Shown one piece after another: positions 2,865 through 63,090 of a DNA stretch of 64,000 nucleotides. A program made the translations under genes and the position numbers. Source of the stretch: Mobula hypostoma (taxonomy: Eukaryota); contig NC_086097.1 of NCBI RefSeq assembly GCF_963921235.1, positions 108,564,001-108,628,000 on the forward strand, written 5' to 3'. Position 1 is the first letter of the stretch. Every line of letters begins with the position of its first letter. The notes below the pieces were generated by a model. That model did no database searches. It was not told the DNA's origin and saw only the letters and a list, made by a program, of their open reading frames with translations.

Positions 2865-3210
2865 CTCTAAATAAATAATCATAAGAATATGATTGATCTC
2901 AAATGGTGGAAACTAATAAAGTTTTTCTCTTGCGCCTACTCCTACCTGTTGGTAATGAGGCTGAAACAGGCCTTCAGGGGAAGACCTTATAATATTTCAT
3001 AGCCTGTAATCTCTGTGTTATCTTTGAGCCTGTTATGGTTAGTGATCTACTCCAGAAGCATTTGTATCATTTGGGGACCCTTGAGAGGAATTCCTTCTGG
3101 AGTCTTCTCAAAGGAGATAACAGCAAAATATTTAGAGTTGTTACTGGTATGTTTTGTAACTCCAGAAATTAATTGAAAGAAAAACACGTCTGGGAATAAC
3201 ACGTCTACTT

Positions 3211-3483
3211 AGTGGGAGGGGGAGGGGGAGATCCAAAATGATAAGAGAAGATCCTCTCGTATCCCTTTTGCCAATCACCTGTCTAGCTCTTGGCTCCATC
3301 CCTCCCCCTCCTGTCTTCTCCTATCATTTTGGATCTCCCCCTCCCCCTCCCACTTTCAAATCTCTTACTAACTCTTCCTTCAGTTAGTCCTGACGAAGGG
3401 TCTTGGCCTGAAACGTCGACTGTACCTCTTCCTAGAGATGCTGCCTGGCCTGCTGCGTTCACCAGCAACTTTGATGTGTGTTG
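3211..3483 (+). mobile_element. Penelope-like element 3' end (pseudo-LTR) with a short 5' inverted segment and a hammerhead motif
   Basis: Near-identical to the reverse complement of the Penelope terminus at 34275-34500. 3211-3253 is an inverted copy of about 3314-3354. Confidence 0.85.
3381..3422 (+). ncRNA. Minimal type-I hammerhead ribozyme motif (Penelope-associated)
   Basis: AGTC-CTGACGA-AGG(gtcttgg)CCT-GAAAC-GTC-GACT: conserved CUGANGA and GAAA cores, stem I AGTC/GACT, stem II AGG/CCT, GUC cleavage triplet at 3415-3417. Confidence 0.75.
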
Positions 3484-6479
3484 TTTCTAAATTCTTGTCA
3501 TTTTGCATTCAAAGTCCATTAGTTACCCAGCTTGACTTTTCTGTGTATCTTTGACCATTGTCTGTTACATGGTATTAACTTCATAACTGGTTGTTGGTAA
3601 GCTGGAGGTATCCGGGGAACATGACCAGATGGCCTCAGAGGAGAATTTCAGATTGCTTTGGCTCAAGTGGCTGTGGACTCTTTCACCTCAGTATGAGTAT
3701 CAGTGCTGTGGGATTGTTGGCTAGCAGTAAACATCAATGACACTGGTTGGAGCGACAGGGTCTGAGAGAGGACTACAGAACTGATGCTCATTAGAGCCAC
3801 CTGGTAGTGACTCAGTGAGCCCTTTTTGCAAACTATAATCTATCGAATGAAAGCTCCGACATTTTATTTTCTGACCTTTCACTAGGCAACAGGTGAATGG
3901 CCACTATTACTGCAATTAATGCTATGATACGCACGTCAAAATCAAATGCTATGCTGTTCATCCTGTCCAGGTGAGAAAAGAAAGAGCCAGCCAACCTAAT
4001 CTCATCATCCAGCACTTGCAAGTTCATGTCCAAGTATTTATGCGAGGTATTGGGAATCTTTAACACAAAAAAACAGTAGGAGGAGCCCTCTCAGCCCCCC
4101 CGATGTTTGCAAAGTGAGTACGTCATATTTCCTCATGATGTACAAGTAGGCCATTTGTTTAAAGTCTGTGCCAGTTCTTGCAGCAGTCCTGTTACCCCAC
4201 TAATTTTTCCTATCATCTCTTCTCTCACTTGTGTCCATTAAAGCACCCCCCCCCTTATTTTCCAATTGCACAGCTGCACCATAGATAATTTATTGGGGAC
4301 TACTAACCTAACAATACACGCCTTTTGGATGTGGGAGGAAAGCAGAGAGCCCACAACCATGTAATACTCTCACAACCATGGGGAGGACGTACAAGCTCCA
4401 CCAATGAAGCATCAGACCTGCAGGGCTCTGGGACAGTTGCACCATGAACAATACTACTCTGCTGCCCAAAAATCTTTTGATCTCTGTGACGAAGTATTTA
4501 ATCTATACTAACTTTTCAAGCGGTGAGTTCCAGCCCTCTTTCACCTGACGAGTGAAAATAGTTTTCCTTATCTCCTCTCCGTTCCTATCAGTTATTTAAA
4601 AAATTTCCCATGGTTTTTGATCACTCTGTTAAAGGAAACAGCTTCTTCCTACTTACTATATCTTGGCCCCTGGTAATTTTACCTTCTCTTTCTCAGGCAG
4701 TTCCTTGGGGCCCAGGATGACTTGCTGCCATTCCAGTTCTGTGAGTTCTGAGGTGGCTGATGAGGCCTATTTGAGATCCGCAGACTCTGCCACAAGTGCT
4801 TGACAGGCGGGTAGGTGGATAGAGTGGGAGGTGGTACACTTCTTTTGCTATTTTCACTTTGCACCCGCATGCTCTGAATGAAAGAACTCAAGTTCCCAGT
4901 GCTATCCTGGATGCTGCTTCTCCATTTGGAGAGGTCACGGGTCAGAGATGCCCACGTTGATGAATTCAGGAAGGACTTGAAAACACCAGGGAAATGTTTA
5001 CTCTGTCTTTCTGGTCATCTCTCATAATGACAGAACTTGTAGGAGGGTACAATGAATGTCTTTGGACTCTGGCTTTAGAGGTGACTGTGTAATGAGAGTC
5101 TTGTTGGTTGGAATAATGGACAGTGACATGGTTCACTTACCTTTCAAATGGATTTTGATGATTTTGGAGATCAGCTTTGGCAGCAACTGTAGTAATTTGA
5201 GTTCCCTCTTTGAACTCTCATTTCTCAGCCAACCAAAGGATATGCTAAACTTCTACTTTCTTAAAGAGGTGACTCTTAATATATGGGAAATGAGCTATGT
5301 TTCCTAGGGTTTTCCAGTGTTGTACAACGAGGTTGGCTGCTAGCGGACTGTTGTTCTGCTGACATTGAGTGTAAGGCTCATCCCCTCAGCAAACACGTCA
5401 AGGACGACCCAGAGCTGTGGCCGTTTATGTGCTAGCAATGCTCTTTGTTCTCGAGTGGAGGCAACAACGATTCAGCAGTTTACAATTTGTCCTATAGATT
5501 GGCTCACTCCAATAGAAAAACTGTTGGATTTGAAATGCATTACTGAAGTGAAAAAGATTGAATGTTGGAATAATTATTGCTTTGGTTGATTCTGGTTTGT
5601 ATTGGGATTGATTTGGAGGTAGGCTGTTGGTTGGAATTATAGGTTGGATGTCATCACATAACAGATATAGAGTAGAGCCAAATTTAAGAACAGTGATCTA
5701 CAATCCTTTATTTAGATAAGTTGATATTTTATTTGTAAAACTGCTGCATTTTTAGAGGGCTGTCACATGGTAATACTCTCGTCTTTTGCACCTCTAATGG
5801 AAACAATCTGCACTGGCCTTTGGGGAGAGGCTGCTTGGCCAATTACAATGACTTTTTCGGTATTTGCAATTGAATTGTCTTCTTTTGAAGATTCTAAAGG
5901 TGATAGCACCTTCAACATTCCTACATAAGGGAGATGAGGTAATGAATTAATTAATATCACAAGTTCCTCTCTCTAAAGTTTTACAACTGTGGGAGGGATA
6001 ATATCTCTTCCTGAGCTAGTGGCAGTATGCTCCTTTGTGGAATGGAGTTGAGATAAGGCCACTTGCATGTAGAACAGAGTCTTGAATTTGAAATTGTTCC
6101 AACAACCTTTCCATTGGACTTTGACTGTTTACATAAGATCTCCAGTCTTGATAGTCAACAGGCTTGGCCTTTGGGCATTTAAGATTTAGTTGAAGAATTT
6201 GCACATATGGTGGTATCAATGATTGCTGCATCTCCTGTGCTCTTTCCACCTATTATCTGTTCTTTAGATTTTTTTTGTTAAACCATAGTTTTGGTGTTTA
6301 TTTTTTCCTTGAAATTTGATAGCATTTCCAATCCAAAAATGTCGGATTTGCACTTATTTTCGCTTCAAGATCTCCTAGTGATTCTTATTCAGTTCATCCC
6401 TCTTTCGTGCTGGTGGAGAAACCAACAGCATCATCATTTGTGTTATTTCTGTTATTCTTGTTCGTTGGGAGTCACGAGG

Positions 6480-9567: not shown

Positions 9568-10918
9568 TAACATCGAAACCTACAGCACAATACAGGCCCT
9601 TCGACCCACAAAGCTGTGCCGAACATGTCCTTACCTTAGAAATTACCTAGGGTTATCCATAGCCCTCTATTTTTACTAAGTTCCATGTACCTGTCCAGGA
9701 GTCTCTTAAAAGACCCTACCGTATCCGCCTCTACCACCGTCACCAGCAGCCCATTCCACTCACACACCACTCTCTGCGTAAAAAACTTACCCCTGACATC
9801 TCCATTGCACCTACTTCCAAGCACCTTAAAACTGTGCCCTCTCATGCTAGCCATTTCAACCCTGGGAAAAAGCCTCTGACTATCCACACAATCAATGCCT
9901 CTCATCATCTTATACACCTCTATCAGGTCACCTCTCATCCTCCGTCGCTCCAAGGAAAAAAGGCCAAGTTCACTCAACCTGTTCTCATAAGGCATGCTCC
10001 CCATTCCAAGCAACATCCTTGTAAATCACCTCTGCTTCCTTTCTGTGGTTTCCACATCCTTCCTATAGTGAGGCGACCAGAATTGAGCACAGTACTCCAA
10101 GTGGGGTCTGACCAGGGTCCTATATAGCTGCAACATTACCTCTCGGCTCCTAAACTCAATCCCACAGTTGATGAAGGCCAATGCACCATATGCCTTCTTA
10201 ACCACAGAGTCAACCTGCGCTGCAGCCTTGAGTGTCCTATGGACTCAGACCCCAAGATCCCTCTGATCCTCCACACTGCCAAGTGTCTTACCATTAATAC
10301 TATATTCTGCCAACATATTTGACCTACCACAATGAACCACCTCACACTCATCTGGGCTGAACTCCATCTGCCACTTCTCAGCCCAGTTTTGCATCCTATC
10401 AATGTCCCGCTGTAACCTCTGACAGCCCTCCGCACTATTCACAACACCCCCAACCTTTGTGTCATTAGCAAATTTACTAACCCATCCCTCCACTTCCTCA
10501 TCCAGGTCATTTATAAAAATCACAAAAGAGTAGGGGTCCCAGAACAGATCCCTGAGGCACACCACTGGTCACCGACTTCCATGCAGAATATGACCCATCT
10601 TTGCCTTGTGTGGGCAAGCCAGTTCTGGATCCACAAAGCAATGTCCCCTTGCATCCCATGCCCTCTTATTTTCTCATTAAGCCTTGCATGGGGTACCTTG
10701 TCAAATGCCTTGCTGAAATCCAGATACACTACATCTACTGCTCTTCCTTCATCAATGTGTTTAGTCGCATCCTCAAAAAATTCAATCAGGCTCGTAAGGC
10801 ACGACCTGCTTTTCACAAAGCCATGCCGACTATTCCTAATCATATGATGTTTCTCCAAATGTTCATAAATCCTGCCTCTCAGGATCTTCTCCAACAACTT
10901 ACTAACCACTGAAGTAAG
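9568..10918 (-). mobile_element. Relatively young 5'-truncated CR1 LINE nested in an older CR1
   Basis: RT motifs ([40 protein letters not shown]) with frameshifts; 3' tail at about 9570. Confidence 0.92.
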
Positions 10919-12594: not shown

Positions 12595-13395
12595 GTTACA
12601 ATGGGACATTGATCCGATGCAGAGCTGGCAGATGGAGTTCAGTCTGGGAAAATGTAAGGTGAAATTTGTAAGGTGAAATTTGAAGGCAGAATGCAGGGTT
12701 CTTAGCAGTGTGGAGGAACAGAGGGATCTTGGGGTCCATATTCATTAATCCCTCAAATTTGCTGCACAAGTTGATAGCGTAGTTAAAAAGGCTTATGGCC
12801 TTCATTAGTCGGGGGACTGAGTTCAAGAGCCGTGAGGTAATGTTGTAGCATTATAAATCTCTGGTTAGACCACACTTGGCATATTGTGTTCATGTCTGGT
12901 TGTCTTATCATAGGAAGGATGTGGAAACTTTAGAGGATGCAGAAGATTTACCAGGATTGAAGAACATCACTTGTAGATAGGTTGAGCGTGCTGGGGCTTT
13001 CCCCTTTGGAGAGAAGGAGGATGAGGGGTGACTTGACAGAGATGTACGAGATGATAAGAAGCATAGATAGAGTAGAGAGCAAGCACCTTTTGCCCAGGGT
13101 GGAAATAGCTAATATGAGGGGCATAATTTTAAGGTGATTCAAGTACGGTGGGGGGGGATGTCAGAGGTAATTTTTTTTTACACAGAGAGTGCTAAGTGTG
13201 TGGAACTTTCTGCCAAGGATAGTGGTAGAGGCAGATACATTTGAGACATTTAAGAGACTCTTTGATATGTACATGGATGAAAGAAAAATAGAGGGCTATG
13301 CGAGAGGAAAGAGTTAGATTGATCTTAGAGTAGGTTAAAAGTTCAGCACAACAATGTGGGCCGAAGGGCCTGTACTGTGTTGTAACATTCTATTT
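12595..13395 (+). mobile_element. CR1 LINE 3' fragment
   Basis: WQMEF...SVEEQRDLG...ERRRMRGDL motifs and a CR1 3' tail. Confidence 0.82.
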
Positions 13396-13863: not shown

Positions 13864-14056
13864 ATTTAAAAACGCAATCACAAGAAAACCTGCAGATGCT
13901 GGAAATTCAAGCAACACACACAAAATGCATCTATAGGAAGAGATACAGTCGACGTTTCGGGCCTGATGAAGGGTCTTGACCTGAAACATCAACTGTACCT
14001 CTTCCTATAGATGCTGCCTGGCCTGCTGTGTTCTACCAGCATTTTGTGTGTGTTGC
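13864..14056 (-). mobile_element. Palindromic Penelope-derived mini-element
   Basis: Two head-to-head Penelope termini. TSD AAGAATGTAG(T/C)GG at 13851-13863 and 14057-14069. Inserted in a CR1 fragment. Confidence 0.8.
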
Positions 14057-15734
14057 AAGAATGTAGCGGTATGGTTAGTACATTAACATACCAGCCTTAA
14101 CATTCAACAAGCAGAAAGCACCACAACTGCTCTCTTTTACTGTGTGCTAAAGCAACCGACAACTCAAATGAAGATCAGGTACATCCAACCTTGCTGTTTT
14201 ATTTCACATTTTTGAATCCAAATTCTCTTTACAGAGTATTTTGTACCTTTAAAGGATAATGAAATACTGTTCTCCCATAATTGCAATGATTTGCAGATGG
14301 TATTGACTCTACCTGTTGTTAATTTAAGGAATATTTAATGGACAGCAAAAGCAATTTAGAAAAAAAGGTTTTCATAAACTGGAATGGAAATACAGATTGT
14401 TAAGATTACAGTTTATGCTCACATCACATAGATTTGTAGAAGCAGGTGAGGGTATTTCACCATTGTACTAGTTGAATAGTTCTTTGAAAGAGATAGTAAA
14501 TTATTTCACCCTCCACAATTGGATCAGCTTCCATTAGCCTTTAATTCCATAATTGGTATTTAAAATCATTTTCCTATTCCTTTGCTTTTTGTTAGTTTTT
14601 CTAAATTTGTGTTTTGATTATCATAACTCAGTGATAGAAAATAATTGAAAAGCAAAATGCTGCAGATGTTGGAAATCCAAAATCAAACCTGATGTGGCTT
14701 GAATTACTAAGCAGAGTAATTGAAGCATGTTTAGCTTCTCATTTAACCAGTAATCAGTTTTAACCTCTTTAATCATTATCTTTCCTGTAGTATGGTAACC
14801 ACAACTGCACAAAATACTCAAAGTGAGGTCCAACCACTGTTTTGTACATTATGAAGCAAGTTCCTGTATTATTTAACAAAAGGCAGAAGATAATTCAAAC
14901 ATGCATGACCATTCACAAGAAACCAAGATGTTGAGCCCACAACTCATAAGGTCTTTAGTTTAATGTCAATCCAGCACAGCTCTTTATGGTCATCAGAATT
15001 TCATTGCAGTGCTGGATGAACCTCACGCTTTCCTAGAATGTCATTGCAAAGAATGGAAGTTGGCGTAAAATTCTGTTTCTGTCCATAAGAACTAGAACTG
15101 TATATTTGGACTTGACTTTTTGCAAAGGTCTTGCAGCTCCTTATCAGCGTTGCTCTCCATTCCTTTCTTCTTTATATGTGTATCTTTGCACTCCTTTCAT
15201 ATATCGGTATTGTTTACCTCACCTCTCCCTGTAGTTCCATATACTCAAGAGTAAATACATTTCTTGTATTGAACATGTCTAATTTTAATCTTCCCCAACC
15301 CTCCACCAGCTTAGAAAAGAAAATATTTGTTAGCCTACAAGTTGATAAGAGCTGTAGTCAAAGGGCATGGAACTGAAGGCTTGGTGGATATGTAAGTACA
15401 GGATTGGGAAAGTGGCAGAAATCAGAGAAAGCAAAGGCTGTCAGATCTATTGGGATTTGTTTATGGATGAGTGCTCTGGGGATTGGGATTGGAGACCAGG
15501 AACTTTTCCATGCCAGTGAAGGATACACGTGATATAATTTCAACTTTTAAAGATGGAATGAAATTTAGAAATGTAGTCAATGAAAGTTAAAGTCATCAGT
15601 TGCAACACCAGTGAAAACGACGGAAACTTAGATCTCAAAATTGCTTACTGTGTTTTTCTTTGATTTTTGGATAACTTTGAAGGTTAACTTTTGTGTTGCA
15701 CAAACAGCCAGAACTTCCAGCTGCAGGATATCCC

Positions 15735-23029: not shown

Positions 23030-23285
23030 ATGCAACACATAAAATGCTGGAGGAGCTCGGCAGTTCAGGCAGCATCTATGGAAATGACTAGATAGTCAAC
23101 GTTTCAAGCCAAGACCCTTCTTCAGGACTGGGAAGGAAGGGGGAAGCTGCCAGAATAAAATAAAGGTGGAGGGAGGGGAAGGGGTCTAGCTGGAAGGTTA
23201 TGGGTGAAGACAAGTGGGTGGGAAAGGTCAAGGGTTGGAGAAGAAGGAATCTAATAGGAGAGGAGAGTGGACCATAGGAGAAATG
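23030..23285 (-). mobile_element. Penelope-like 3' terminus with hammerhead motif (23094-23130, minus strand)
   Basis: The reverse complement reads CAGTC-CTGAAGA-AGGGTCTTGGCTT-GAAAC-GTT-GACT, followed by the usual Penelope terminal sequence. Confidence 0.75.
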
Positions 23286-24070: not shown

Positions 24071-27000
24071 CAAATTCACCTTCAATTTAAAATTAACCTC
24101 GGTATGTTTTTAAAACACAGATTATCTTCACTTTTTGTACTTAAAGTGCAATTATGTATATAGAGGCAGGCACAATCTATCTTATCCTCTGAAGGCAAAC
24201 CTATTGCCGACCTTCAGACTAAATGTCCCCTGTCTGCCAAGCCTGTGCAAATTAACCTAGAGTTTGGATATTGTTTTATTTTAAAAATGTTAAAATAGAT
24301 GCCAGAGTAAGTTCTTGGTTGTGTTTTGTCTAGTTTTCAAATGTTTTTGGGTGTGTTTACGACTGGATATGTCTGTTAATATTTGTCTCCTGGAATCGAT
24401 TGAAGCATCATAAATATTTAAATAAAATATGATGGCGTTTAAAACCAGCACGCTGGAGAATGAAACAACAGACAGAAGTTGTTGCATGATGAGGCCCTAT
24501 TTGAAGGAATGTAGGCTCATGGAACAAAAGGTCTCAAAGGCTGAAACAGTAGAGAACTGTAAGTTGTGGATTTGCTCAGAGGACAGTTCAGACACCTCAT
24601 GATTTCAGGATGGATGTGCAGGCTAAAACTCAAGATTTGTGGATGACACCAACCTAGGGGTATGATAAATAGCGGGATCGGTAGAAATAGCTTACAAGAA
24701 GATGAAGGCTGGCAAGATGGGCAGGTGAGTCACAACTTAAACTTAATAGCAAAATGTGATTGATGCATTTGGCTAGAAAGAGCAAGGCAGAAGAATACAG
24801 TCCTCACAGCAGACTGCGAACAGAGACCTAGTGTACAGGTCCTTGGAATTGGCAGGGCATGTTAAAACAGTGATGGCTGAAGTATACCGAATCTTGGGCT
24901 TCTTAAATAGTGGCTTAGAACCTAAGAACAGGGAGGAAATTGTGCTTAATCTAGTAACTATATTTTTAAAAAGATGTGATATTCCTAGAGAAGGTGGTAA
25001 AAACATACTAGAGTGGTTTTTGGGATGACAGATCTTGGTCTCCCAGTTGTCTGAGTTTTTGGAACATGAAATTGGAAATCAAAAGAACAGTGGATGCTGG
25101 AAATATTGAATAATCGGAAATGTAAGAAGCAAGTTAATTGGAACCTGTACCTTATCCCTTTTTGTGGAGGTAGGTGGCAAAGGAAGGAAAGGGCAGTTTT
25201 TGGAGGGATGGAGGGAGGGATTTACTTACAGGGGACTAAGTAGAGGTGAGATTGATGTGGGGGGCAGCACTAACTGAATGGCTGCCTCCTGTAGTCTGAT
25301 GAATAACTATTTGGCAGGGCAGGGAATCACAGTTAACATTTAGGATTGGTGGCCTGAAAGCACATTTGATTGTAGTTTATTTAATTGTGACTAGTCCCTT
25401 TCTGGCATGTGGAGAGAATCTGTTGTATTTACAGATGGTTGTGGGGCCAGGAAATACATTCAGAAGGGAGTGTGGGGGGGGGGAGCTTTGTTAGTGGCAA
25501 AAGTAGTCAATTGGGCTTTTAAAATGGTTAGGTATTTAAGATAAAATAATGTTTTGGGCTATGGGGAAGAGCAGGCAAATGTGACTGAGTGGTTGTAGGG
25601 AACTGGCAAGGAGTCATTAGGGTGGATGGCCTTATTCTCTGTCTTCAAGAAATTCTGTTCTCCACAATGGTAATATTGGGCACATAACTACCAAAAAAAA
25701 AAGGCCAAATATCTCCAGCAATGATTTACCTTTGCTTTCTCCCAATAAAGAAAGCCTCAGAGAGCCCAGGCTAAGGCCCATACCTGAGCCAAAAACATTG
25801 CAAGTTTCTCTTTGATGGTGACCCTTTGTATTGATGGTGCAGGATTTACTGAGTTCATTCCACAATCTTTACTGTCACAGAGGTCAGACTTCAGGCAGTG
25901 TGATTCACTCCACTTGTTGCATCCTGAAGGACATGTGTCAGATTTAGCTTTGCTTCTACCCAAATTGTACCAGAATATTTACAGCAGCAATCGTCACCCA
26001 GCAATGCTGAAAACTGCCCAAGTTTGTGATGTCCATGAAACATAAATATAGTCCAATCTGACCAAACAGTGTTAACTGACTAACTTGTTTTATCTCTTTC
26101 CTACTTGGGTGTCCAGCCTGAAGCATCAACTCTGTAACTCTTTCCACAGATGCTGCCTGAACTACTGAGTGTGCCCAGCATTTTCTGTTTTTAATTTCAG
26201 CTTTCCAGTTCTGCAGCTTTTGAGTTTCTTGTCAGCAGTGTGCTCTGGTGTGCGGTTTGCTCATCAGTAAAACAAAACCAGAAAATGCTGGCAATACTCT
26301 AAGTTGAGCAGCATTTGTGGAGTAGTAAGCAGAGTTCAACTTTTAGGTCAATGAGCTTTCATCAGAGTTCTTGTTGTTAGAGACATCCTTGCCTCTGGAA
26401 CTTTGCTGCGGTCATTCCTTGATCCATTGATGGAAAAGCTTCTCTTCATTATAAGTTCAGAGATGTTTATTAATAATCAGTGTTTGCAACAGATACTGAA
26501 GTGGTCCATGCTCATGAGATCTAACCAAGCTCATGCTTGGGCTGATAAGAAGGAAATAATATTCATGTTGCAAAGGCCAGACAATGACCAACTTCAACAA
26601 GATAGCATGCAACCACTTTCTCTTGATGCTCAGCAATTACTTTATTGTTGGAATTTTCCATCTTGGACCATTGATTCTGCTGTGGAGCTAGACTTGCTGG
26701 TCACACTGCATCCAATTTCTCATCTGCCCTTTTATTCACATATTTATGGGGCTGCTTCAGTTGAAGTTCTGGCCAGTGGCAGTCCTTTGATTTTGATTAA
26801 CTGTTGGGCTTTCACTGATGCTACTGCCGTTGATTGCCAGTGGGATGTGGTTCTGCTCAGTCTGTTAGAGAGTGTCACAATTCTAATACAAACAAAGGAA
26901 GTTACCAAACTTAGTTGGATTCAATACTGGGTCATAGTCTGCAGAGTGCTTAGTTGAAAACTGAGGTGCTTCTTCAAGCTTGCTTTGGGCCTCAGTAAAA

Positions 27001-31142: not shown

Positions 31143-32755
31143 GGTCACCACCTTTCTGGAGCATGTTGATATTAAGGGAGAGGAGGTGTTGGAGTTATTA
31201 AAATACATTAGGATGGATAAGTTCCCAGGGCCTGATGGAATATTCCCCAGGCTGCTCCACGAGGCGAGGGAAGAGATTGCTGAGCCTCTGGCTGAGATCT
31301 TTATGTCCTCGTTGTCTACGGGAATGGTACCGGAGGATTGGAGGGAGGCGAATGTTGTCTCCTTGTGCAAAAAAGGTAGTAGGGATAGTCCGAGTAATTA
31401 TTAGACCAATGAGCCTTGCGTCTGTGGTGGGAAAGCTGTTGGAAAAGGTTCTTAGAGATAGGATCTGTGGGCATTTAGAGAATCATGGTCTGATCAGGGA
31501 CAGTCAGCATGGCTTTGTGAAGGGCAGATCATGTCTAACAAGCCTGATAGAGTTCTTTGAGGAGGTGACCAGGCATATAGATAAGAGTAGTGAAGTAGAT
31601 ATGATCTATATGGATTTTAGTAAGGCATTTGACAAGGCTCCACATGGTAGGTTTATTCAGAAAGTCAGAAGGCATGGAATCCAGGGAAGTTTGGCCAGGT
31701 GGATTCAGAATTTGGCTTGCCTGCAGAAGGCAGAGTGTGGTGGTGGAGGGAGTACATTCGGATTGGAGGGTTGTGACTGGTGGTGTCCCACAAGGATCAA
31801 CTCTGGGACCTCTACTTTTCGTGATTTTTATTAACAACCTGGATGTGGGGGGTAGAAGGGTGGGTTGGCAAGTTTGCAGACGACAGAAAGGTTGGCGGTG
31901 ATGTAGATAGTGTAGAGGATTGTTGAAGATTGCAGAGAGATATTGATAGGTTGCAGAAGTGGGCTGAGAAGTGGCAGATGGAGTTCAACCCGGAGAAGTG
32001 TGAGGTACACTTTGGAAGGACAAACTCCAAGGCAGAGTACAAAGTAAATGGTAGGATATTTGGTAGTGTGGAGGAGCAGAGGGATCTGGGGCTACATGTC
32101 CACAGATCCCTGAAAGTTGCCTCACAGGTAGATTGGGTAGTTAAGAAAGTTTATGAGGTGTTAGTTGTCATAAGTCAAGGGATAGGGTTTAAGAGCCGCG
32201 AGGTAATGATGCAGCTCTATAAAACTGTGGTTAGGCCGCACTTGGAGTATTGTGTCCAGTTCTGGTCGCCTCACTATAGGAAGGATGTGGAAGCATTGGA
32301 AAGGGTACAGAGGAGATTTACCAGGATGCTGCCTGGTTTAGAAAGTATGCATTATGATCAGAGATTAAGGGAGCTAGGGCTTTACTCTTTGGAGAGGAGG
32401 AGGATGAGAGGAGACATAATAGAGGTATACAAGATATTAAGAGGAATAGATGGAGTGGATAGCCAGCGCCTCTTCCCCAGGGCAGCACTGCTCAATACAA
32501 GAGGACATGGCTTTAAGGTAAGGGATGGGAAGTTCAAGGGGGATATTAGAGGATGGTTTTTTACTCAGAGTGGTTGGTGTGTGGAATGCACTGCCTGAGT
32601 CAGTGGTGGAGGCAGGTACACTAGTGAAATTTAAGAGACTACTAGACATGTATATGGAGGAATTTAAGGTGGGGGGTTATATGGGAGGCAGGGTTTGAGG
32701 GTCGGCATAACAATGTGGGCAAAGGGCCTGTACTGTGCTGTACTATTCTATGTTC
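31143..32755 (+). mobile_element. Young 5'-truncated CR1 LINE
   Basis: [52 protein letters not shown] and a CR1 tail, with few frameshifts. Confidence 0.93.
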
Positions 32756-33686: not shown

Positions 33687-35878
33687 CAGTGGATTCTGGT
33701 TAATTGGCGCACATTGGGACCAGTACAGTTCAGCTCAATTAAGTGGCTGCCCCAATTAGCTGAAGTATCATAGAAATAGTTAAAAATGTATTTGAAAAAA
33801 AAGACAAACTACAGTTTTATAAAATACAGAACAAATTAGAACACTAACAATACTACAACAGAACTATAAAACCGTATCAAAGTTCTAATAGCTGTCAGTG
33901 AAGGAATTCATTCAGAGTACATAATGCATTATACTGCAAGACATATTTCACGCTGTATGCCAGTGGTATTAAACTTGATTCAGATTCTTTTGACTGTAAA
34001 TGAACAAAGTCAGCACAGACACCTACTGTAGGTAATGGGCTGCTTTCATACAATGCTGTCAATGATTGCATCCTCCAAATGTTCAATTTCATACCTTCAA
34101 ATTCTTTGTAGGTCCTAACTTGTTGAAGGAGGAAATAATTTCATTTTAACTCCCAGCCATTTCTGGCATCTCCAAGCCTGAAATCACTGTTTTCTGAACA
34201 CAAGCATACATAGCCGGCACTATTTTAAAGCATGGTATGGTGTATTAACGGCCATAGGAGTACATGCATCTGACAACACACATAAAAGTTGCTGGTGAAC
34301 GCGGCAGGCCAGGCAGCATCTCTAGGAAGAGGTGCAGTCGATGTTTCAGGCCGAGACCCTTCGTCAGGACTAACTGAAGGAAGAGTGAGTAAGGGATTTG
34401 AAAGTTGGAGGGGGAGATCCAAAATGATAGGAGAAGACAGGAGGGGGGAGGGATGGAGCCAAGAACTGGACAGGTGATAGGCAAAAGGGATACGAGAGGA
34501 TCATAGGACAGGAGGTCCGGGAAGAAAGACAAGGAGGGGTGGGGGGTGGACCCAGAGGATGGGCAAGGGGTATATTCAGAGGGACAGAGGGAGAAAAGGG
34601 AGAGTGAGAGAAAGAATGTGTGTATAAAAATAAGTAACAGATGGGGTATGAGGGGGAGGTGGGGGCATTAGCGGAAGTTAGAGAAGTTGATGTTCATGCC
34701 ATCAGGTTGGAGGCTACCCAGACGTTGGGTAGCCTCCAACCTGATAAGGTGTTGTTCCTCCAACCTGAGTGTGGCTTCATCTTTACAGTAGAGGAGGCCG
34801 TGGATAAACATGTCAGAATGGGAATGGGATGTGGAATTAAAATGTGTGGCCGCTGGGAGATCCTGCTTTCTCTGGCGGACAGAGCGTAGGTGTTCAGCAA
34901 AGTGGTCTCCCAGTCTGCGTTGGGTCTCGCCAATATATAAAAGGCCACATCGGGAGCACCGGACGCAGTATATCACCCCAGCCGACTCACAGGTGAAGTG
35001 TTGCCTCACCTGGAAGGACTGTTTGGGGCCCTGAGTGGTGGTAAGGGAGGAAGTGTAAGGGCATGTGTAGCACTTGTTCCGCTTACACGGATAAGTGCCA
35101 GGAGGGAGATCAGTGGGGAGGGATGGGGGGGACGAATGGACAAGGGAGTTGCGTAGGGAGCGATCTCTGCGGAATGCAGTGGGGGGGAGGGAAAGATGTG
35201 CTTAGTGGTGGGATCCCGTTGGAGGTGGCGGAAGTTACGGAGAATAATATGTTGGACCTGGAGGCTGGTGGGGTGGTAGGTGAGGACCAGGGGAACCCTA
35301 TTCCTAGTGGGATGGCGGGAGGATGGAGTGAGAGCAGATGTACATGAAATGGGGGAGATGCGTTTAAGAGCAGAGTTGATAGTGGAGGAAGGGAAACCCC
35401 TTTCTTTAAAAAAGGAAGACATCTCCCTCGTCCTAGAATGAAAAGCCTCATCTTGAGAGCAGATGCGGCGGAGACGGAGGAATTGCAAGAAGGGGATGGC
35501 GTTTTTGCAGGAGACAGGGTGAGAAGAGGAATAGTCCAGATAGCTGTGAGAGTCAGTAGGCTTATAGTAGACGTCAGTGGATAAGCTGTCGACAGAGACA
35601 AGAGACAGAAAGATCTAGAAAGGGGAGGGAGGTGTCGGAAATGGACCAGGTAAACTTGAGGGCAGAGTGAAAGTTGGAGGCAAAGTTAATAAAGTCAACA
35701 TGCATCTGACGCTAGTTAGAAACTTTGGCAATAGTGTTTTGCCCCAGTTAAATGACATTGTGTCCTAAATAAATTAAGGGAATCCTGGTTATTCTCTTGA
35801 ATAGTTTTTTCTTTAAGAGTTGTCCTAAATAAGTGGCTGTCCCAATTAACAGATAACCTAATTAACCAGATTCAACTG
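33687..35878. mobile_element. Tigger/pogo-like non-autonomous DNA transposon interrupted by a Penelope
   Basis: TA|CAGTGGATTCTGGTTAATT ... AATTAACCAGATTCAACTG|TA: TIRs with TA TSDs. Confidence 0.85.
34275..35697 (-). mobile_element. 5'-truncated Penelope-like retroelement (RT C-terminus, GIY-YIG endonuclease, hammerhead at 34335-34376)
   Basis: FTCESAGVIYCVRCSRCGLLYIGETQRRLGDHFAEH and QFLRLRRICSQDEAF. 13-bp TSD ACATGCATCTGAC at 34262-34274 and 35698-35710. Confidence 0.93.
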
Positions 35879-36589: not shown

Positions 36590-37410
36590 TTGGGACATTG
36601 ATAGGATGCAGAACTGGGCTGAGAAGTGGCAGATGGAGTTCAACCCAGATAAGTGTGAGGTGGTACATTTTGGTAGGTCAAATATGATGGCAGAATATAG
36701 TATTAATGGTAAGACTCTTGGCAGTGTGGAGGGTCAGAGGTATCTTGAGGTCCGAGTCCATAGGACACTCAAAGCTGCTATGTAGGTTGACTCTGTGGTT
36801 AAGTAGGCATACGGGGCATTGGCCTTCATCAATCGTGGGATTGAGTTTAAGAGCTAAGAGGTAATGTTGCAGCTATATAGGACCCTGGTCAGACCCCCCT
36901 TGGAGTACTGTGCTCAATTCTGGTCGCCTCACTACAGGAAGAATGTGGAAATCATAGAAAGGGTGCAGAGGAGATTTACAAGGATGTTGCCTGGATTGGG
37001 GAGCATGCCTTATGGGAATAGGTTGAGTGAACTATCGGGAGGATGAGAGGTGACCTGATAGAGATGTACAAGATAATGAGCGGCATTGATAGTGTGGATA
37101 GTCAGAGGCTTTTTCCCAAGGCTGAAATGGCTAGCATGAGAGAGCATAGTTTTAAGGTGCTTGAAAGTAGGTACAGAGGAGATGTCGGGGGTAATTTTTT
37201 TTTTAAGCAGAGAGTGGTGAGTGCGTGGAGTGGACTGCTGGCGGCGGTGGTGGAGGCAGAAACGATAGGGTCCTTTAAGAGACTCCTGGGTGGATACATG
37301 GAGCTTAGAAAAATAGAGGGCTATGGGTAAGCCTAGGTAGTTCTAAGATAAGGACGTGTTCGGCACGGCTTTGTGGGCTGAAGGGCCTGTATTGTGCTGT
37401 ATGTTTTCTA
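36590..37410 (+). mobile_element. CR1 LINE 3' fragment (same subfamily as 9568-10918)
   Basis: DIDRMQNWAEKWQMEF...LEYCAQFWSPHYRK; the 3' tail closely resembles the reverse complement of 9570-9700. Confidence 0.9.
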
Positions 37411-55482: not shown

Positions 55483-58210
55483 CTGACTCTGACCCTGACC
55501 GCGACTGGAACCATGGCCTCTCGGACATGGGCACTAGCCCCCAGCGGGTCGTGGACTCACTGGTCTCCGACTCAAACCTCAGTTCTGGCGCCCTGCAGGC
55601 TACAGGCTCCGCCACCCCCAGCTCCAGATCCAGCCCGGACCGAGGTCCTGACCCTCTCCAGACTGGGACTGCTCTTACTGCCACTGGGTCCTCCTGCTCG
55701 TCTTATTCCTCCACTACCCTCTTTCCTCCCTGCGACTCCCAACCTTCCCCCGACACCTCATCACCCTTCCATTCCTCTGATCCCTCATCCTCCCCTAACC
55801 CTGCTCTCCCTGAATAACCCCACCCCCCCGCTCCTGAGACCTCCCACTCTTCACCCTCCCCTGACCCCAGCCCCAATCCTTGCCGTGTCTTCACCATCCT
55901 CTCTGACCTTCCCCTCTCTGAGGCAGAATGTTCTGTCCTTAGCAAGGACTTCACTTTTGTCCCCCTCGGTCCACATCTCAGTGAGTTCTGTGCCCGCCAT
56001 GACACTGAACTATTCTTCAGTCGCCTAAGTCTCCAAGCCTACTTCTTTGGCAAGGATTCCCCTCCCCTTACTGATGACCCCTTCTCCTGTCTTCAGCCCT
56101 CCTCCTCCTCCTGGACACCTCGCCCGGGCCTTCTACCTGCACTCGATCTTTTCATCTCCAACTGTCGCTGAGATATCAACTGTCTCAACTTCACCACTCC
56201 TCTCTCCTGTTCCAACCTCACTCCCTCTGAATACACTGCCCTCCACTCTCTCCACACTAATCCTAACCTCACCATCAAACCCGCAGACAAAGGTGTTGCC
56301 GTAGTAGTCTGGCGGACGGACCTCTACCTCACTGAGGCTAAACGGCAGCTCTCTACACCTCCTCTTACTTACCCCTGGAACAGGACCCCACCAAAAAACA
56401 TCAAAAACCATTGTCTCCTGTACCATCGCCACCCTTATCAACTCCGGAGGCCTTCCATCCTCAGCCACTAAACTCATAATTCCCACACCCCGTACTGCTC
56501 GGTTTTACCTCCTTCCCAAGATCCACAAGCCTGACTGTCCCAGTAGACCCATAGTTTCTGCCTGCTCCTGCCCCACCGAACTTGTATCTGCATACCAGAC
56601 TCCATTTTGTCACCCACAGTTCAGTCCCTCCCCACCTACATCTGGGATACATCCCATGCCCTCCACCTCTTCAATAACTTTCAGTTCTCCAGTCCCGACT
56701 GCTTCATTTTCACTATGGATGTCCAATCCTTATACACCTCCATTCCCCATCAAGAAGGCCTCAAAGCCCTCCGCTACTTTCTAGACAATAGACCTCACCA
56801 GTTCCCCACCACCACTACCCTCCTCCGGTTGGCGGAACTGGTACTCACACTTAATAACTTCTGTTTTGGGTCTTCCCACTTTCTTCAGACCAAGGGTGTA
56901 GCTATGGGCACTCACATGGGCCCCAGCTATGCCTGCCTCTTCGTTTGTTATGTGGAACAGTCTGTACTCCAAACCTATACTGGTACTGCTCCCCAACTTT
57001 TCCTTCGCTACATTGACGACTACATTGGTGCTGCTTCCTGCACCCATGCTGAGCTCGTCAATTTCATCGACTTTACTTCAAACTTCCACCCAGCCCTCAA
57101 ATTCACTTGGTCTATCTCGAGCACTTCTCTCCCCTTTCTCAATCTCTCGGTCTCCATCTCTGGAGACAGACTGTCCACTGACATCTTCTACAAGCCCACT
57201 GACTCTCATAACTACCTGGACTATACCTCTTCCCCACCCCACCACATGCAAAAATGCCATTCCCTATTCCCAGTTCCTCCGTCTCTGCTGCATCTGCTCC
57301 CAGGATGAGGCTTTCCGTTCCAGGACATCTCAAATGTCCTCTTTCTTTAAGGATTGTGGTTTCCCTTCTGCTATCATCAATGGTGCCCTCACCCGCATCT
57401 CCTCCATTTCCCGCACTTCGGCTCTCACCCCATCCTCCCACCACCACAACAGGGACAGAGTTCCTCTTGTCCTCACCTACCACCCACCAGCCTCCGGATC
57501 CAGCACATTATCCTCTGCAACTTCAGCCACCTTCAACAGGACCCCATCACCAAGCACACCTTTCCCTCTCTGCTTTCCGCAGGGATCGTTCCCTCTGCAA
57601 CTCCCTGGTCCACACATCCCTTCCCACGGATCTCCCTCCCGGCACTTATCCCTGTAAGCGTAAGTGCTACGTCTGTCCCTACACCTCTTCTCTTGCCACC
57701 ATTCCAGGTGAGGCAACACTTCACTTGTGAGTTTGTTGGGATCATCTATTGCATCCGGTGCTCTTGGTGTGGCCTCCTCTACATCAGTGAAACCTGACGC
57801 AGATTGGGGGACTGCTTTGTCGAGCACCTCCACTCCGTCCACTACAATAGACAGGATCTCCCGGTTGCCACCCAGTTCAACTCTGCTTCACATTCCCATT
57901 CGGATATGTCCATACATGGCCTCCTCTACTGCCATGATGAGGCTAAACTCAGGTTGGAGAAGCAACACCTCATATACCGTCTAGGTAGTCTCCAGCCCCT
58001 TGGTATGAACATTGAATTCTCCAACTTTCGATAATTCCCTCCCCCTCCTTTCCCCTGTCCCAATTTCATTCTGCCCCCTCCCCCAGCTGCCTACTACCTC
58101 CCTCATGGTTCTGCCTCCTTCTACTGCCCATTGTGTTTTCCCCTATTCCTTCTTCACCTTTCCTGCCTATCACCTCCCTGCTTCCCCTCCCCCACCCCTT
58201 TATCTTTGCC
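55483..58210 (+). mobile_element. Penelope-like retroelement, long decayed copy (RT plus GIY-YIG)
   Basis: IKPADKG, FYLLPKIHKP..P.RPIVS, FTMDVQSLYTSIPH, QTKGVAMGT.MGPSYA, RYIDD, FTCEFVGIIYCIRC..CGLLYISET. Confidence 0.95.
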
Positions 58211-62105: not shown

Positions 62106-62258
62106 CTTGCTAAAAATCTGCCTCCTCGAACTGTTGGCTACCCGTGGACTCTAATTTACAGCACTTCAAAGCATGGCATGAGTCTGAAGACACTGTACCG
62201 TAGTATGACAGGTGTCGATACACCAATGCTGCTAGTTATTAAAGACAGCGATGGCCAG
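62106..62258 (+). CDS. OXR1: OXR1 TLDc exon LAKNLPPRTVGYPWTLIYSTSKHGMSLKTLYRSMTGVDTPMLLVIKDSDGQ
   Basis: Acceptor tttcag|CTT; donor CAG|GTACAG; 153 nt. Classic TLDc motif LPPRT.GYPW.L.Y.T..HG.SLKTLYR. Confidence 0.97.
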
Positions 62259-62285
62259 GTACAGCAAAGACATTTAAAAGACAGA

Positions 62286-62522
62286 GGTAACACACATCAA
62301 AGTTGCTGGTGAACGTAGCAGGCCAGGCAGCATCTCTCGGAAGAGGTACAATCGACGTTTCAGGCCGAGACCCTTCGTCAGGACAGTCCTGACGAAGGGT
62401 CTTGGCCTGAAACGTCGATTGTACCTCTTCCGAGAGATGCTGCCTGGCCTGCTACGTTCACCAGCAACTTTGATGTGTGTTGCTTGAATTTCCAGCACCT
62501 GCAGAATTCCTGTTGTTTGCGT
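62286..62522 (+). mobile_element. Palindromic Penelope-derived mini-element with two inverted hammerhead motifs
   Basis: 96-bp arms (62289-62384 and 62386-62481) with one mismatch and a 1-nt centre. TSD TTTAAAAGACAGA at 62273-62285 and 62523-62535. Confidence 0.92.
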
Positions 62523-62994
62523 TTTAAAAGACAGACGTGTTACTTTTATGTCATACATGAAAAAATATACTGTTAACTTTTCACAAAGGTAGTATTTCAA
62601 AACAGTAAAATATACACATTCCTATAGTATTTCACTCTGCCTTGCTGATTTTCAGAATTTTGACATTTTTTTAGTTTCAGTTGGGTGGTGCTATGAGTGT
62701 TGTCACTTGATAGGTTGTATGATATTTCAAGCCATGACGGCTGGCTTTGTTCCCCATTGCTGTACAGACCCTTCCATCTACTCCACCTCAACAACTTGCA
62801 TTCAGTTGTGGAACATAAAACTGCTGGAGGAACTCAGTCTGTTGTGTTTCCACTCAGTTTTGGGCTTGTGAATTACTGTACTGGGAGTCTCAGAAGTTAA
62901 TAGCATCAGCAGCCTATGAGTATAACTTGTTTACAATTTTGGTAGTTTAAGAAATGTTCAGATTAATTTCTATTATCCTGTTCTATGCCCACAG

Positions 62995-63090
62995 CTATTT
63001 GGTGCACTAGCATCAGAGCCATTTAAAGTTAGCGATTGTTTTTATGGCACAGGGGAGACGTTCCTTTTCACATTTTATCCAGAATTTAAG
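62995..63090 (+). CDS. OXR1: OXR1 TLDc exon LFGALASEPFKVSDCFYGTGETFLFTFYPEFK
   Basis: Acceptor cccacag|CTA; donor AAG|GTAAGA; 96 nt. TLDc motif FGA....P......FYGTGETF.F. Confidence 0.97.

Follow-up and report, generated by a model that had tools for sequence, protein, structure and literature searches.

How does a short and almost symmetrical sequence, with a ribozyme motif on each strand, come to lie just inside an intron of an OXR1-type gene? The locus is found near the end of the window, by which we mean the whole 64,000-nucleotide stretch of Mobula hypostoma DNA that was analysed, and the original prediction saw in it a possible member of a fold-back 'ribozyme MITE' family. Our analysis points to another origin. 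Two ribozyme-bearing ends of a Penelope-like element (PLE) are joined here head to head within one 13-bp target site duplication (TSD), probably by a single insertion in which both nicks were primed on the same RNA.

The insert and its parent element

Positions along the element are counted from B1 (window 62385), where hammerhead helix I starts, with negative values upstream in the element. The 237-bp insert begins at intron base 28 past the donor (the last exon base is 62258) and is enclosed by perfect copies of the TSD TTTAAAAGACAGA (62273–62285 and 62523–62535, plus strand, 13/13 identical), the left one being marked also by an empty site in organism C. From left to right, a 3-nt filler (62286–62288) is followed by an inverted, tail-less arm on the minus strand (62289–62384, element bases B2–B97) and a sense arm on the plus strand (62385–62481, B1–B97), whose 5' end falls, by the arm-end counts below, at the truncation hot spot of the family. 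The PLE 'tail' of 41 nt (62482–62522, plus strand) belongs to one arm only and runs on into the ORF leader in full-length copies. The 96-bp inverted arms (62289–62384 and 62386–62481) turn around base 62385 and differ only at 62367/62403, a CpG-type change. The anatomy first proposed for the insert was thereby reproduced at every coordinate, with the qualification that it is lopsided rather than a pure palindrome, the right arm being extended by the tail and the left side by the short filler only.

The RNA hairpin of the insert has a predicted fold of -223.6 kcal/mol with z = -28, so the palindrome is not a product of chance. An assembly artefact is also unlikely; a contig of organism C has the empty site. 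The three variants noticed earlier (62419, 62432 and 62454) are indeed found in both arms. In a genome-wide search the exact 43-nt haplotype that carries them occurred in these two arms alone, and allowing one mismatch brought in five more copies, each with just two of the three variants. The single-copy tail of the insert also has a private variant.

Each arm contains the predicted hammerhead core CTGACGA..GAAACGTC. In the sense arm, a candidate minimal type I hammerhead (62385–62420, plus strand) is composed of helix I (62385–88/62417–20, with one G-U pair here), the core (62389–95), helix II (62397–408, also seen in the fold) and GAAAC (62409–13), with a predicted cut after the GUC at 62414–62416; the motif of the inverted arm occupies 62350–62384 on the minus strand. 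The T/C variation at B24 among the copies compared preserves a hammerhead pair. The conserved core and helices I and II are all present in the arm sequence, which fits the min-HHR descriptor of Cervera and De la Pena (2014, PMC4209133), and the earlier claim of minimal hammerheads in the arms is supported to that extent. An Rfam scan of the window gave no hammerhead match at E <= 1. Its sub-threshold matches were to miRNA precursors only, at a hairpin at 3197–3367, and are spurious, being caused by another fold-back of the same family (3207–3486) that is centred further upstream and has a short inverted arm without the 3' end.

The claim of a ribozyme on each strand holds for the motif, which is a trivial outcome of the inversion. 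A transcript of either strand contains one sense copy only, so that the tandem dimer which these ribozymes probably need is not possible; minimal hammerheads are described as inactive when monomeric and weak when dimeric (PMC4209133). In the pre-mRNA the sense hammerhead is predicted to be locked inside a 96-bp hairpin, and the full hairpin obtained by folding is in line with the proposal of a long double-stranded RNA that would mask the sense ribozyme.

Both arms match the end of a longer, 5'-truncated and frameshifted PLE copy at 34275–35700 (minus strand), which served as reference copy and retains an RT thumb, a CX4CX2C linker, a GIY-YIG domain and the pLTR. Three of the 12 long-ORF loci fetched (L278, L279 and L280) have a pLTR-ORF-pLTR arrangement with a 3,517-nt unit, and L279 has an inverted pLTR copy in addition. 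The ORF of L278 starts at B171 and encodes 1,016 amino acids with RT, CX4CX2C linker and C-terminal GIY-YIG; its Pfam matches (RVT_1, 5.4e-05; GIY-YIG, 1.1e-03) both lie below the gathering scores, and the motifs DKG, YIDD and GVIY-CxxC-LYIG are visible. Its linker motif CKRNKCYTC corresponds to the CX2-5CxxC between RT and EN that marks Neptune and also Nematis (PMC8557442), and the parent would by this motif, common to both clades, be a Neptune- or Nematis-type element. The family combines a single RT and GIY-YIG ORF, partial-tandem pLTRs, a one-sided tail and a variable TSD, as expected of EN+ PLEs. The Penelope origin suggested for the insert is thus backed by an RT/GIY-YIG parent with a matching end. 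Exact copies of one 23-nt stretch of the element end number 98,729, so at least 98,729 end copies are present. By eye, a 16-codon upstream ORF was noticed in the 170-nt leader of the element (window 62436–62485, B52–B101), where it overlaps the first of the two zones in which reverse transcription starts.

How the two arms relate

Further palindromic copies, whose existence had been anticipated, are abundant. By a wide-gap pattern, head-to-head pairs within 250 nt number 15,805 genome-wide, with 0 for the control, and a pattern search of the genome gave 168 loci with the same centre as the OXR1 insert. A sample of 55 pairs not picked for their centre was drawn from 50 listed pairs and random stretches, leaving out pairs with a failed anchor; most sampled pairs lie in the first megabases of contig C1, and the searches favour short or same-centre pairs. 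TSDs were found in 61 of 66 pairs, are 11–20 bp long (mostly 13–15 bp) and are all different. The two 5' ends were equal in 3/55 pairs, an end at B0–2 was seen in 7/55 tailed and 7/55 tail-less arms, and the junction filler did not exceed 3 nt in 40/55. Because arm lengths, centres and TSDs differ in this way, the palindrome appears to be remade at each insertion and not to be a MITE, and we consider it very likely that it was made anew here rather than copied as a unit.

The 3' ends of the arms cluster at B87–107 and B127–138. In 128 of 131 distinct pairs a tailed arm is joined to a tail-less one, two tail-less arms are never combined, and the other three pairs are borderline, with a shorter arm that ends at B114–120. 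An independent choice of start would mismatch about half of the pairs. The arms also agree in their subfamily: 260 of 272 diagnostic comparisons (66 pairs) were concordant, against 35% disagreement when arms were shuffled (1,000 shuffles; lowest 21%). Non-CpG divergence between arms (81/3,019, 2.7%) is not below that between TSDs (16/747, 2.1%, a value that is biased low), and the agreement therefore stems from a shared template and not from later conversion. Derivation of both arms from one template is thereby upheld, and the hairpin gene conversion offered earlier is not general.

At the OXR1 locus itself, it is quite possible, if somewhat short of an even chance, that the three shared variants arose after insertion and spread between the arms by local gene conversion. 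No third copy has all three within one mismatch, and this locus holds three of the four rare shared variants in the 66 pairs. Against this stand the lack of homogenisation across the family, the private variant of the single-copy tail, and the single arm-arm mismatch, which fits the age bracket of the insert (~1.5% divergence for organism B, ~2.8% for organism C). The variants could alternatively derive from a template that came from an old source copy which has since disappeared or changed further.

The arms are not nested in any regular manner. At its 5' end the tailed arm falls short of the tail-less arm by 10 nt or more in 24/55 pairs, is longer in 15/55 and ends within 10 nt of it in 16/55; the longer arm is the tailed one in 22/55, the tail-less one in 30/55, and neither in 3/55. 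A leading/trailing rule, in which the tail-less arm would always be the longer, failed on these counts (22 versus 30) and is weak at most in the very unequal pairs, where the tail-less arm is longer in 9/12, by 100–950 nt. Junctions contain filler in 24/55 pairs, and 17 of the 31 filler-free junctions have an overlap of at least 2 nt, against 16% expected. Another head-to-head insertion of this family lies elsewhere in the window (13872–14062), with the tailed arm on the left, a centre at B20/B4 and, by eye, a flanking TSD of ~13 bp.

The 5'-end hot spot and the insertion mechanism

Why is the centre of the OXR1 palindrome at the front edge of the hammerhead? Arms holding B7–27 number 55,746 in the genome, 15,950 without and 39,796 with C at B-7. 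Ends within B-6..B7 were found in 26/30 and 1/30 of the fetched loci of these two types, or 27% when weighted (two alignment over-extensions were corrected by eye), and in ~81 and ~13 of 100 + 100 listed rows examined by eye, or 32%; in an independent arm set 9/30 end in B-8..B11. These 14 nt thus collect ~2.5% of ends per base and ~30% of arms, against ~0.5% per base for B30–40, which holds the predicted cut site, and ~0.12% per base beyond B-50 (18 ends, 21 arms). The stopping of ~30% of arms at this edge accounts for the position of the centre. Ribozyme cleavage as the main source of 5' ends was rejected, B30–40 taking only ~5–6% of them, and no sharp excess was seen at the predicted cut site itself (by eye, ~10/100 rows at B33 versus 4–6 at its neighbours). 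Copies without a partner end in this zone as well, mostly next to their TSD; in most hot-spot loci the TSD is adjacent or a short filler away, and several have no credible TSD within 40 nt. In the literature searched, most of it open-access, a hot spot of 5' ends at PLE hammerheads was not described.

We give even chances to the hot spot being the start of the RNA, a cause that is slightly preferred over a block to reverse transcription. The zone has a sequence that we take to be initiator-like. The candidate signature of a cap, an extra G before B1, was present in 8/13 rows at first and then in 23/100, and is not enriched; the pattern used is blind to a T two bases upstream. In D. virilis the promoter is internal. 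The hot spot may be common to several PLE subfamilies.

It is a serious possibility, well short of even, that the RNA continues upstream and that reverse transcription is blocked at the front edge, most plausibly by splicing factors that occupy a 3' splice site at this position, or else by RNA structure. The stretch B-20..B3 of L278 resembles a 3' splice site, in that a motif like a branch point, a pyrimidine tract and two AGs lead up to the hammerhead; the two subfamilies differ at a tolerant branch-point position (CTAAC versus CTCAC), an intron of D. virilis ends at helix I (PMC4209133), and about two thirds of arms read through. Splicing itself left no trace in the copies: a donor joined in sense was seen at 0/130 hot-spot arms, and a genome-wide search with the two strongest donors gave a single match, a microhomology deletion and not a splice. 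A 7-bp local hairpin is broken in the CTCAC subfamily, yet the hot spot occurs with both downstream types (71 and 59 arms, the linkage to the branch-point variant being incomplete), and a stall on the ribozyme fold would be expected on its 3' side. Spliced RNA or a host exon as template was rejected, since hot-spot copies share no upstream sequence and donor joins were not seen. For RNA-like runs compared with the parent copy, the 15 matches listed (649 more exist) contain no GT..AG joint that reaches the hammerhead edge. A palindrome of a diverged PLE subfamily with the same centre was observed at locus L002 (G000:C1:19674212).

For the insertion as a whole, we lean towards two primings on one RNA. 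The GIY-YIG endonuclease would make a staggered cut ~13–15 bp apart, as published biochemistry leads one to expect, and two RT subunits would start at internal sites near B97 and B135, which would leave one arm with a tail and one without. The front edge of the hammerhead is where both cDNAs ended, most likely because many template RNAs would begin there, and their ends would then be joined by microhomology-type repair. The near-perfect symmetry at the OXR1 locus is the ~1% case in which both arms stop at the hot spot. A PLE protein has been found to nick and extend both strands and to start reverse transcription at two internal sites that bound the tail; the protein is predicted to dimerise and works on RNA that has not been cleaved (PMC11167929).

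Several observations limit this reading of two primings. The mechanism has to be deduced from finished insertions; off-centre trimming of a perfect hairpin at a later time could also give non-nested arms and microhomology, and the arms could derive from two pLTR copies within a single tandem transcript instead of one shared RNA segment. No clear leading/trailing rule emerged among the 55 pairs. The cap-derived G that an RNA start might leave is not enriched, and the hot spot also coincides with a sequence like a 3' splice site.

Self-priming, in which an antisense RNA (PMC3846280) or the first cDNA snaps back and is copied, followed by an off-centre deletion in the unstable palindrome, appears unlikely. 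It would explain arms of the same template and microhomology at the junction; some junctions lie on natural mini-palindromes such as GTCGAC, and the three shared private variants at the OXR1 locus fit the copying of one arm from the other. An arm made by copying has to fall within its template, so that the tailed arm would always extend furthest 5' in such a process, and this is contradicted by the 24/55 pairs in which it is shorter by at least 10 nt and by the 9/12 very unequal pairs in which it is shorter by 100–950 nt. Non-nested arms make a simple snap-back insufficient without the later deletion, and the hot spot is shared by unpaired copies.

Returning to two primings on one RNA, we tentatively extend the scheme: the palindromes could be fossil snapshots of the Penelope integration complex, a dimer that would prime both strands on one RNA from two internal start sites, with both RTs copying one short stretch and running off the RNA 5' end exactly at the front edge of an uncut hammerhead. 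Were this extension true, it would account at once for the tail, the inverted pLTR and the ~135-nt stubs, and would replace the antisense self-priming model. On a related point, the element reads TTTAAA just past the tail (window 62520–62530; L120, L140), and several TSDs begin alike. This match of TSDs and tail start suggests a short pairing between target and template, unlike what was described in vitro.

Known systems, the host gene and other repeats

Inverted ends, a one-sided tail and hammerheads on opposite strands are already published. In EN+ PLEs a 5'-truncated copy can be present in inverted orientation, together with a tail of 30–40 bp on one side and a TSD (PMC8557442), complex PLE insertions have head-to-head palindromes at the junction (PMC3846280), and metazoan PLEs have hammerhead pairs 100–700 bp apart on opposite strands (PMC4209133). 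The insert resembles the complex insertions of EN+ PLEs in its head-to-head layout, its tail on one arm, its TSD and a parent with RT and C-terminal GIY-YIG. It differs from those described in these papers in that each arm retains only the tip of the pLTR and no ORF separates the two, and its hammerheads are contiguous. The published self-priming account fits the non-nested arms poorly, and the origin of tandem and inverted PLE structures has been called undefined (PMC8557442). With the minimal hammerheads of PMC4209133 the insert shares the CUGAnGA and GAAAC-GUC core, the short helix I, the palindromic helix III stub and the extra base before helix II.

Poseidon of Anolis (PAc), as studied in vitro by Frangieh et al. 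(2024, PMC11167929), belongs to another clade, without the linker Zn motif. As appears to be the case here, its tail is bounded by two internal RT start sites, both strands are cut and extended, targets are AT-rich and ribozyme cleavage is not required; the paper is silent on how inverted pairs form and on where cDNAs end. Non-LTR retrozymes (bioRxiv 10.64898/2026.07.22.740005) share the small size, the lack of coding capacity and a PLE-derived hammerhead, but are head-to-tail tandem repeats. Membership in this class was rejected, the insert being head to head and lacking tandem hammerhead units. The locus is of value as a sample of a family with ~16,000 head-to-head insertions. Sharp predictions for the existing in vitro PLE system follow from the strict pairing of tailed with tail-less arms, from their common template and lack of nesting, and from the stop zone at the front edge of the hammerhead.

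In L1 twin priming, both target strands prime on one RNA and an inversion results inside one TSD. That process inverts without duplicating, whereas the same RNA stretch was copied twice here, and it is occasional in L1 where the head-to-head form is very common in this PLE family.

The host exon (62106–62258, plus strand, donor GT at 62259) encodes part of an OXR1-type TLDc domain (Pfam TLD, 3.9e-10), with a best PDB match to 4ACJ (1.4e-22), which we take to be OXR1, ahead of NCOA7. RNA evidence is composed of contigs assembled from RNA-like runs, and one from run X9 joins this exon to the next (62995–63090, plus strand) at GT..AG with the intron removed. Despite its weak +4..+6, the donor (62259–62264) is in use according to this contig. 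In organism C, one contig passes directly from 62284 to 62537, with flanks of 382 and 124 letters, and so represents the empty site (252 nt missing versus 250 expected). Contigs of organism B, and possible source-sample contigs likewise, enter both junctions by 18–29 letters, under a bridging rule of 31 letters. Divergence is ~1.5% for organism B, the carrier, and ~2.8% for organism C, which is empty. The presence/absence difference between relatives is thus confirmed for the empty state and very likely for the presence of the insert in organism B, and the insert is a usable marker between related organisms.

A regulatory use of the insert by OXR1, through editing, small RNA or splicing, is very improbable. 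The predicted 96-bp double-stranded RNA lies 31 nt from a donor with weak +4..+6, and the insert was probably kept in two organisms. No effect on splicing, which had been envisaged, was seen: in the dominant RNA-like contig the intron has been removed at GT..AG (cover of the X9 contig is absent over 62558–62792 and was not counted against intron retention). A>G differences within the insert occur in DNA runs too and reflect other copies, not editing. The insert is missing from organism C, and equivalent hairpins exist in thousands, so the locus is not special. It appears to be an ordinary dead, neutral head-to-head PLE stub, and the family may be a large source of predicted intronic double-stranded RNA in the genome.

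This leaves the fold-back family that was first proposed. MITEs are small non-coding elements with inverted repeats, a description that suits the insert, which has no fixed termini and is not copied as a unit. Fifteen of the 168 same-centre loci were read, and each has one tailed and one shorter arm, the tail-less arm ending anywhere from ~B49 to B107, with varying spacers, flanks and subfamily types; independent arm ends would predict ~190 such loci (a rough estimate, as pattern stringencies differ). A search for uniform length and fixed inverted termini failed, arm ends and centres being variable, and none of these fifteen proved to be a sibling of this palindrome at another site. A non-autonomous 'ribozyme MITE' copied as a palindromic unit is the least credible explanation of all, for although the insert is small and TSD-flanked and shares its centre with many loci, their number fits independent ends, the termini are asymmetric, the TSDs of 11–20 bp are retrotransposon-like and the haplotype is unique genome-wide.

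Other repeats were observed in the window. An older PLE subfamily copy at 57070–58048 is ~74% identical to the reference copy, and further older PLE fragments are found at 23035–23139 and 26116–26159. Another interspersed repeat is present in several copies (9761–10408, 12621–13391, 31415–32742 and 36592–37401), which presumably resemble CR1-type LINE 3' ends.
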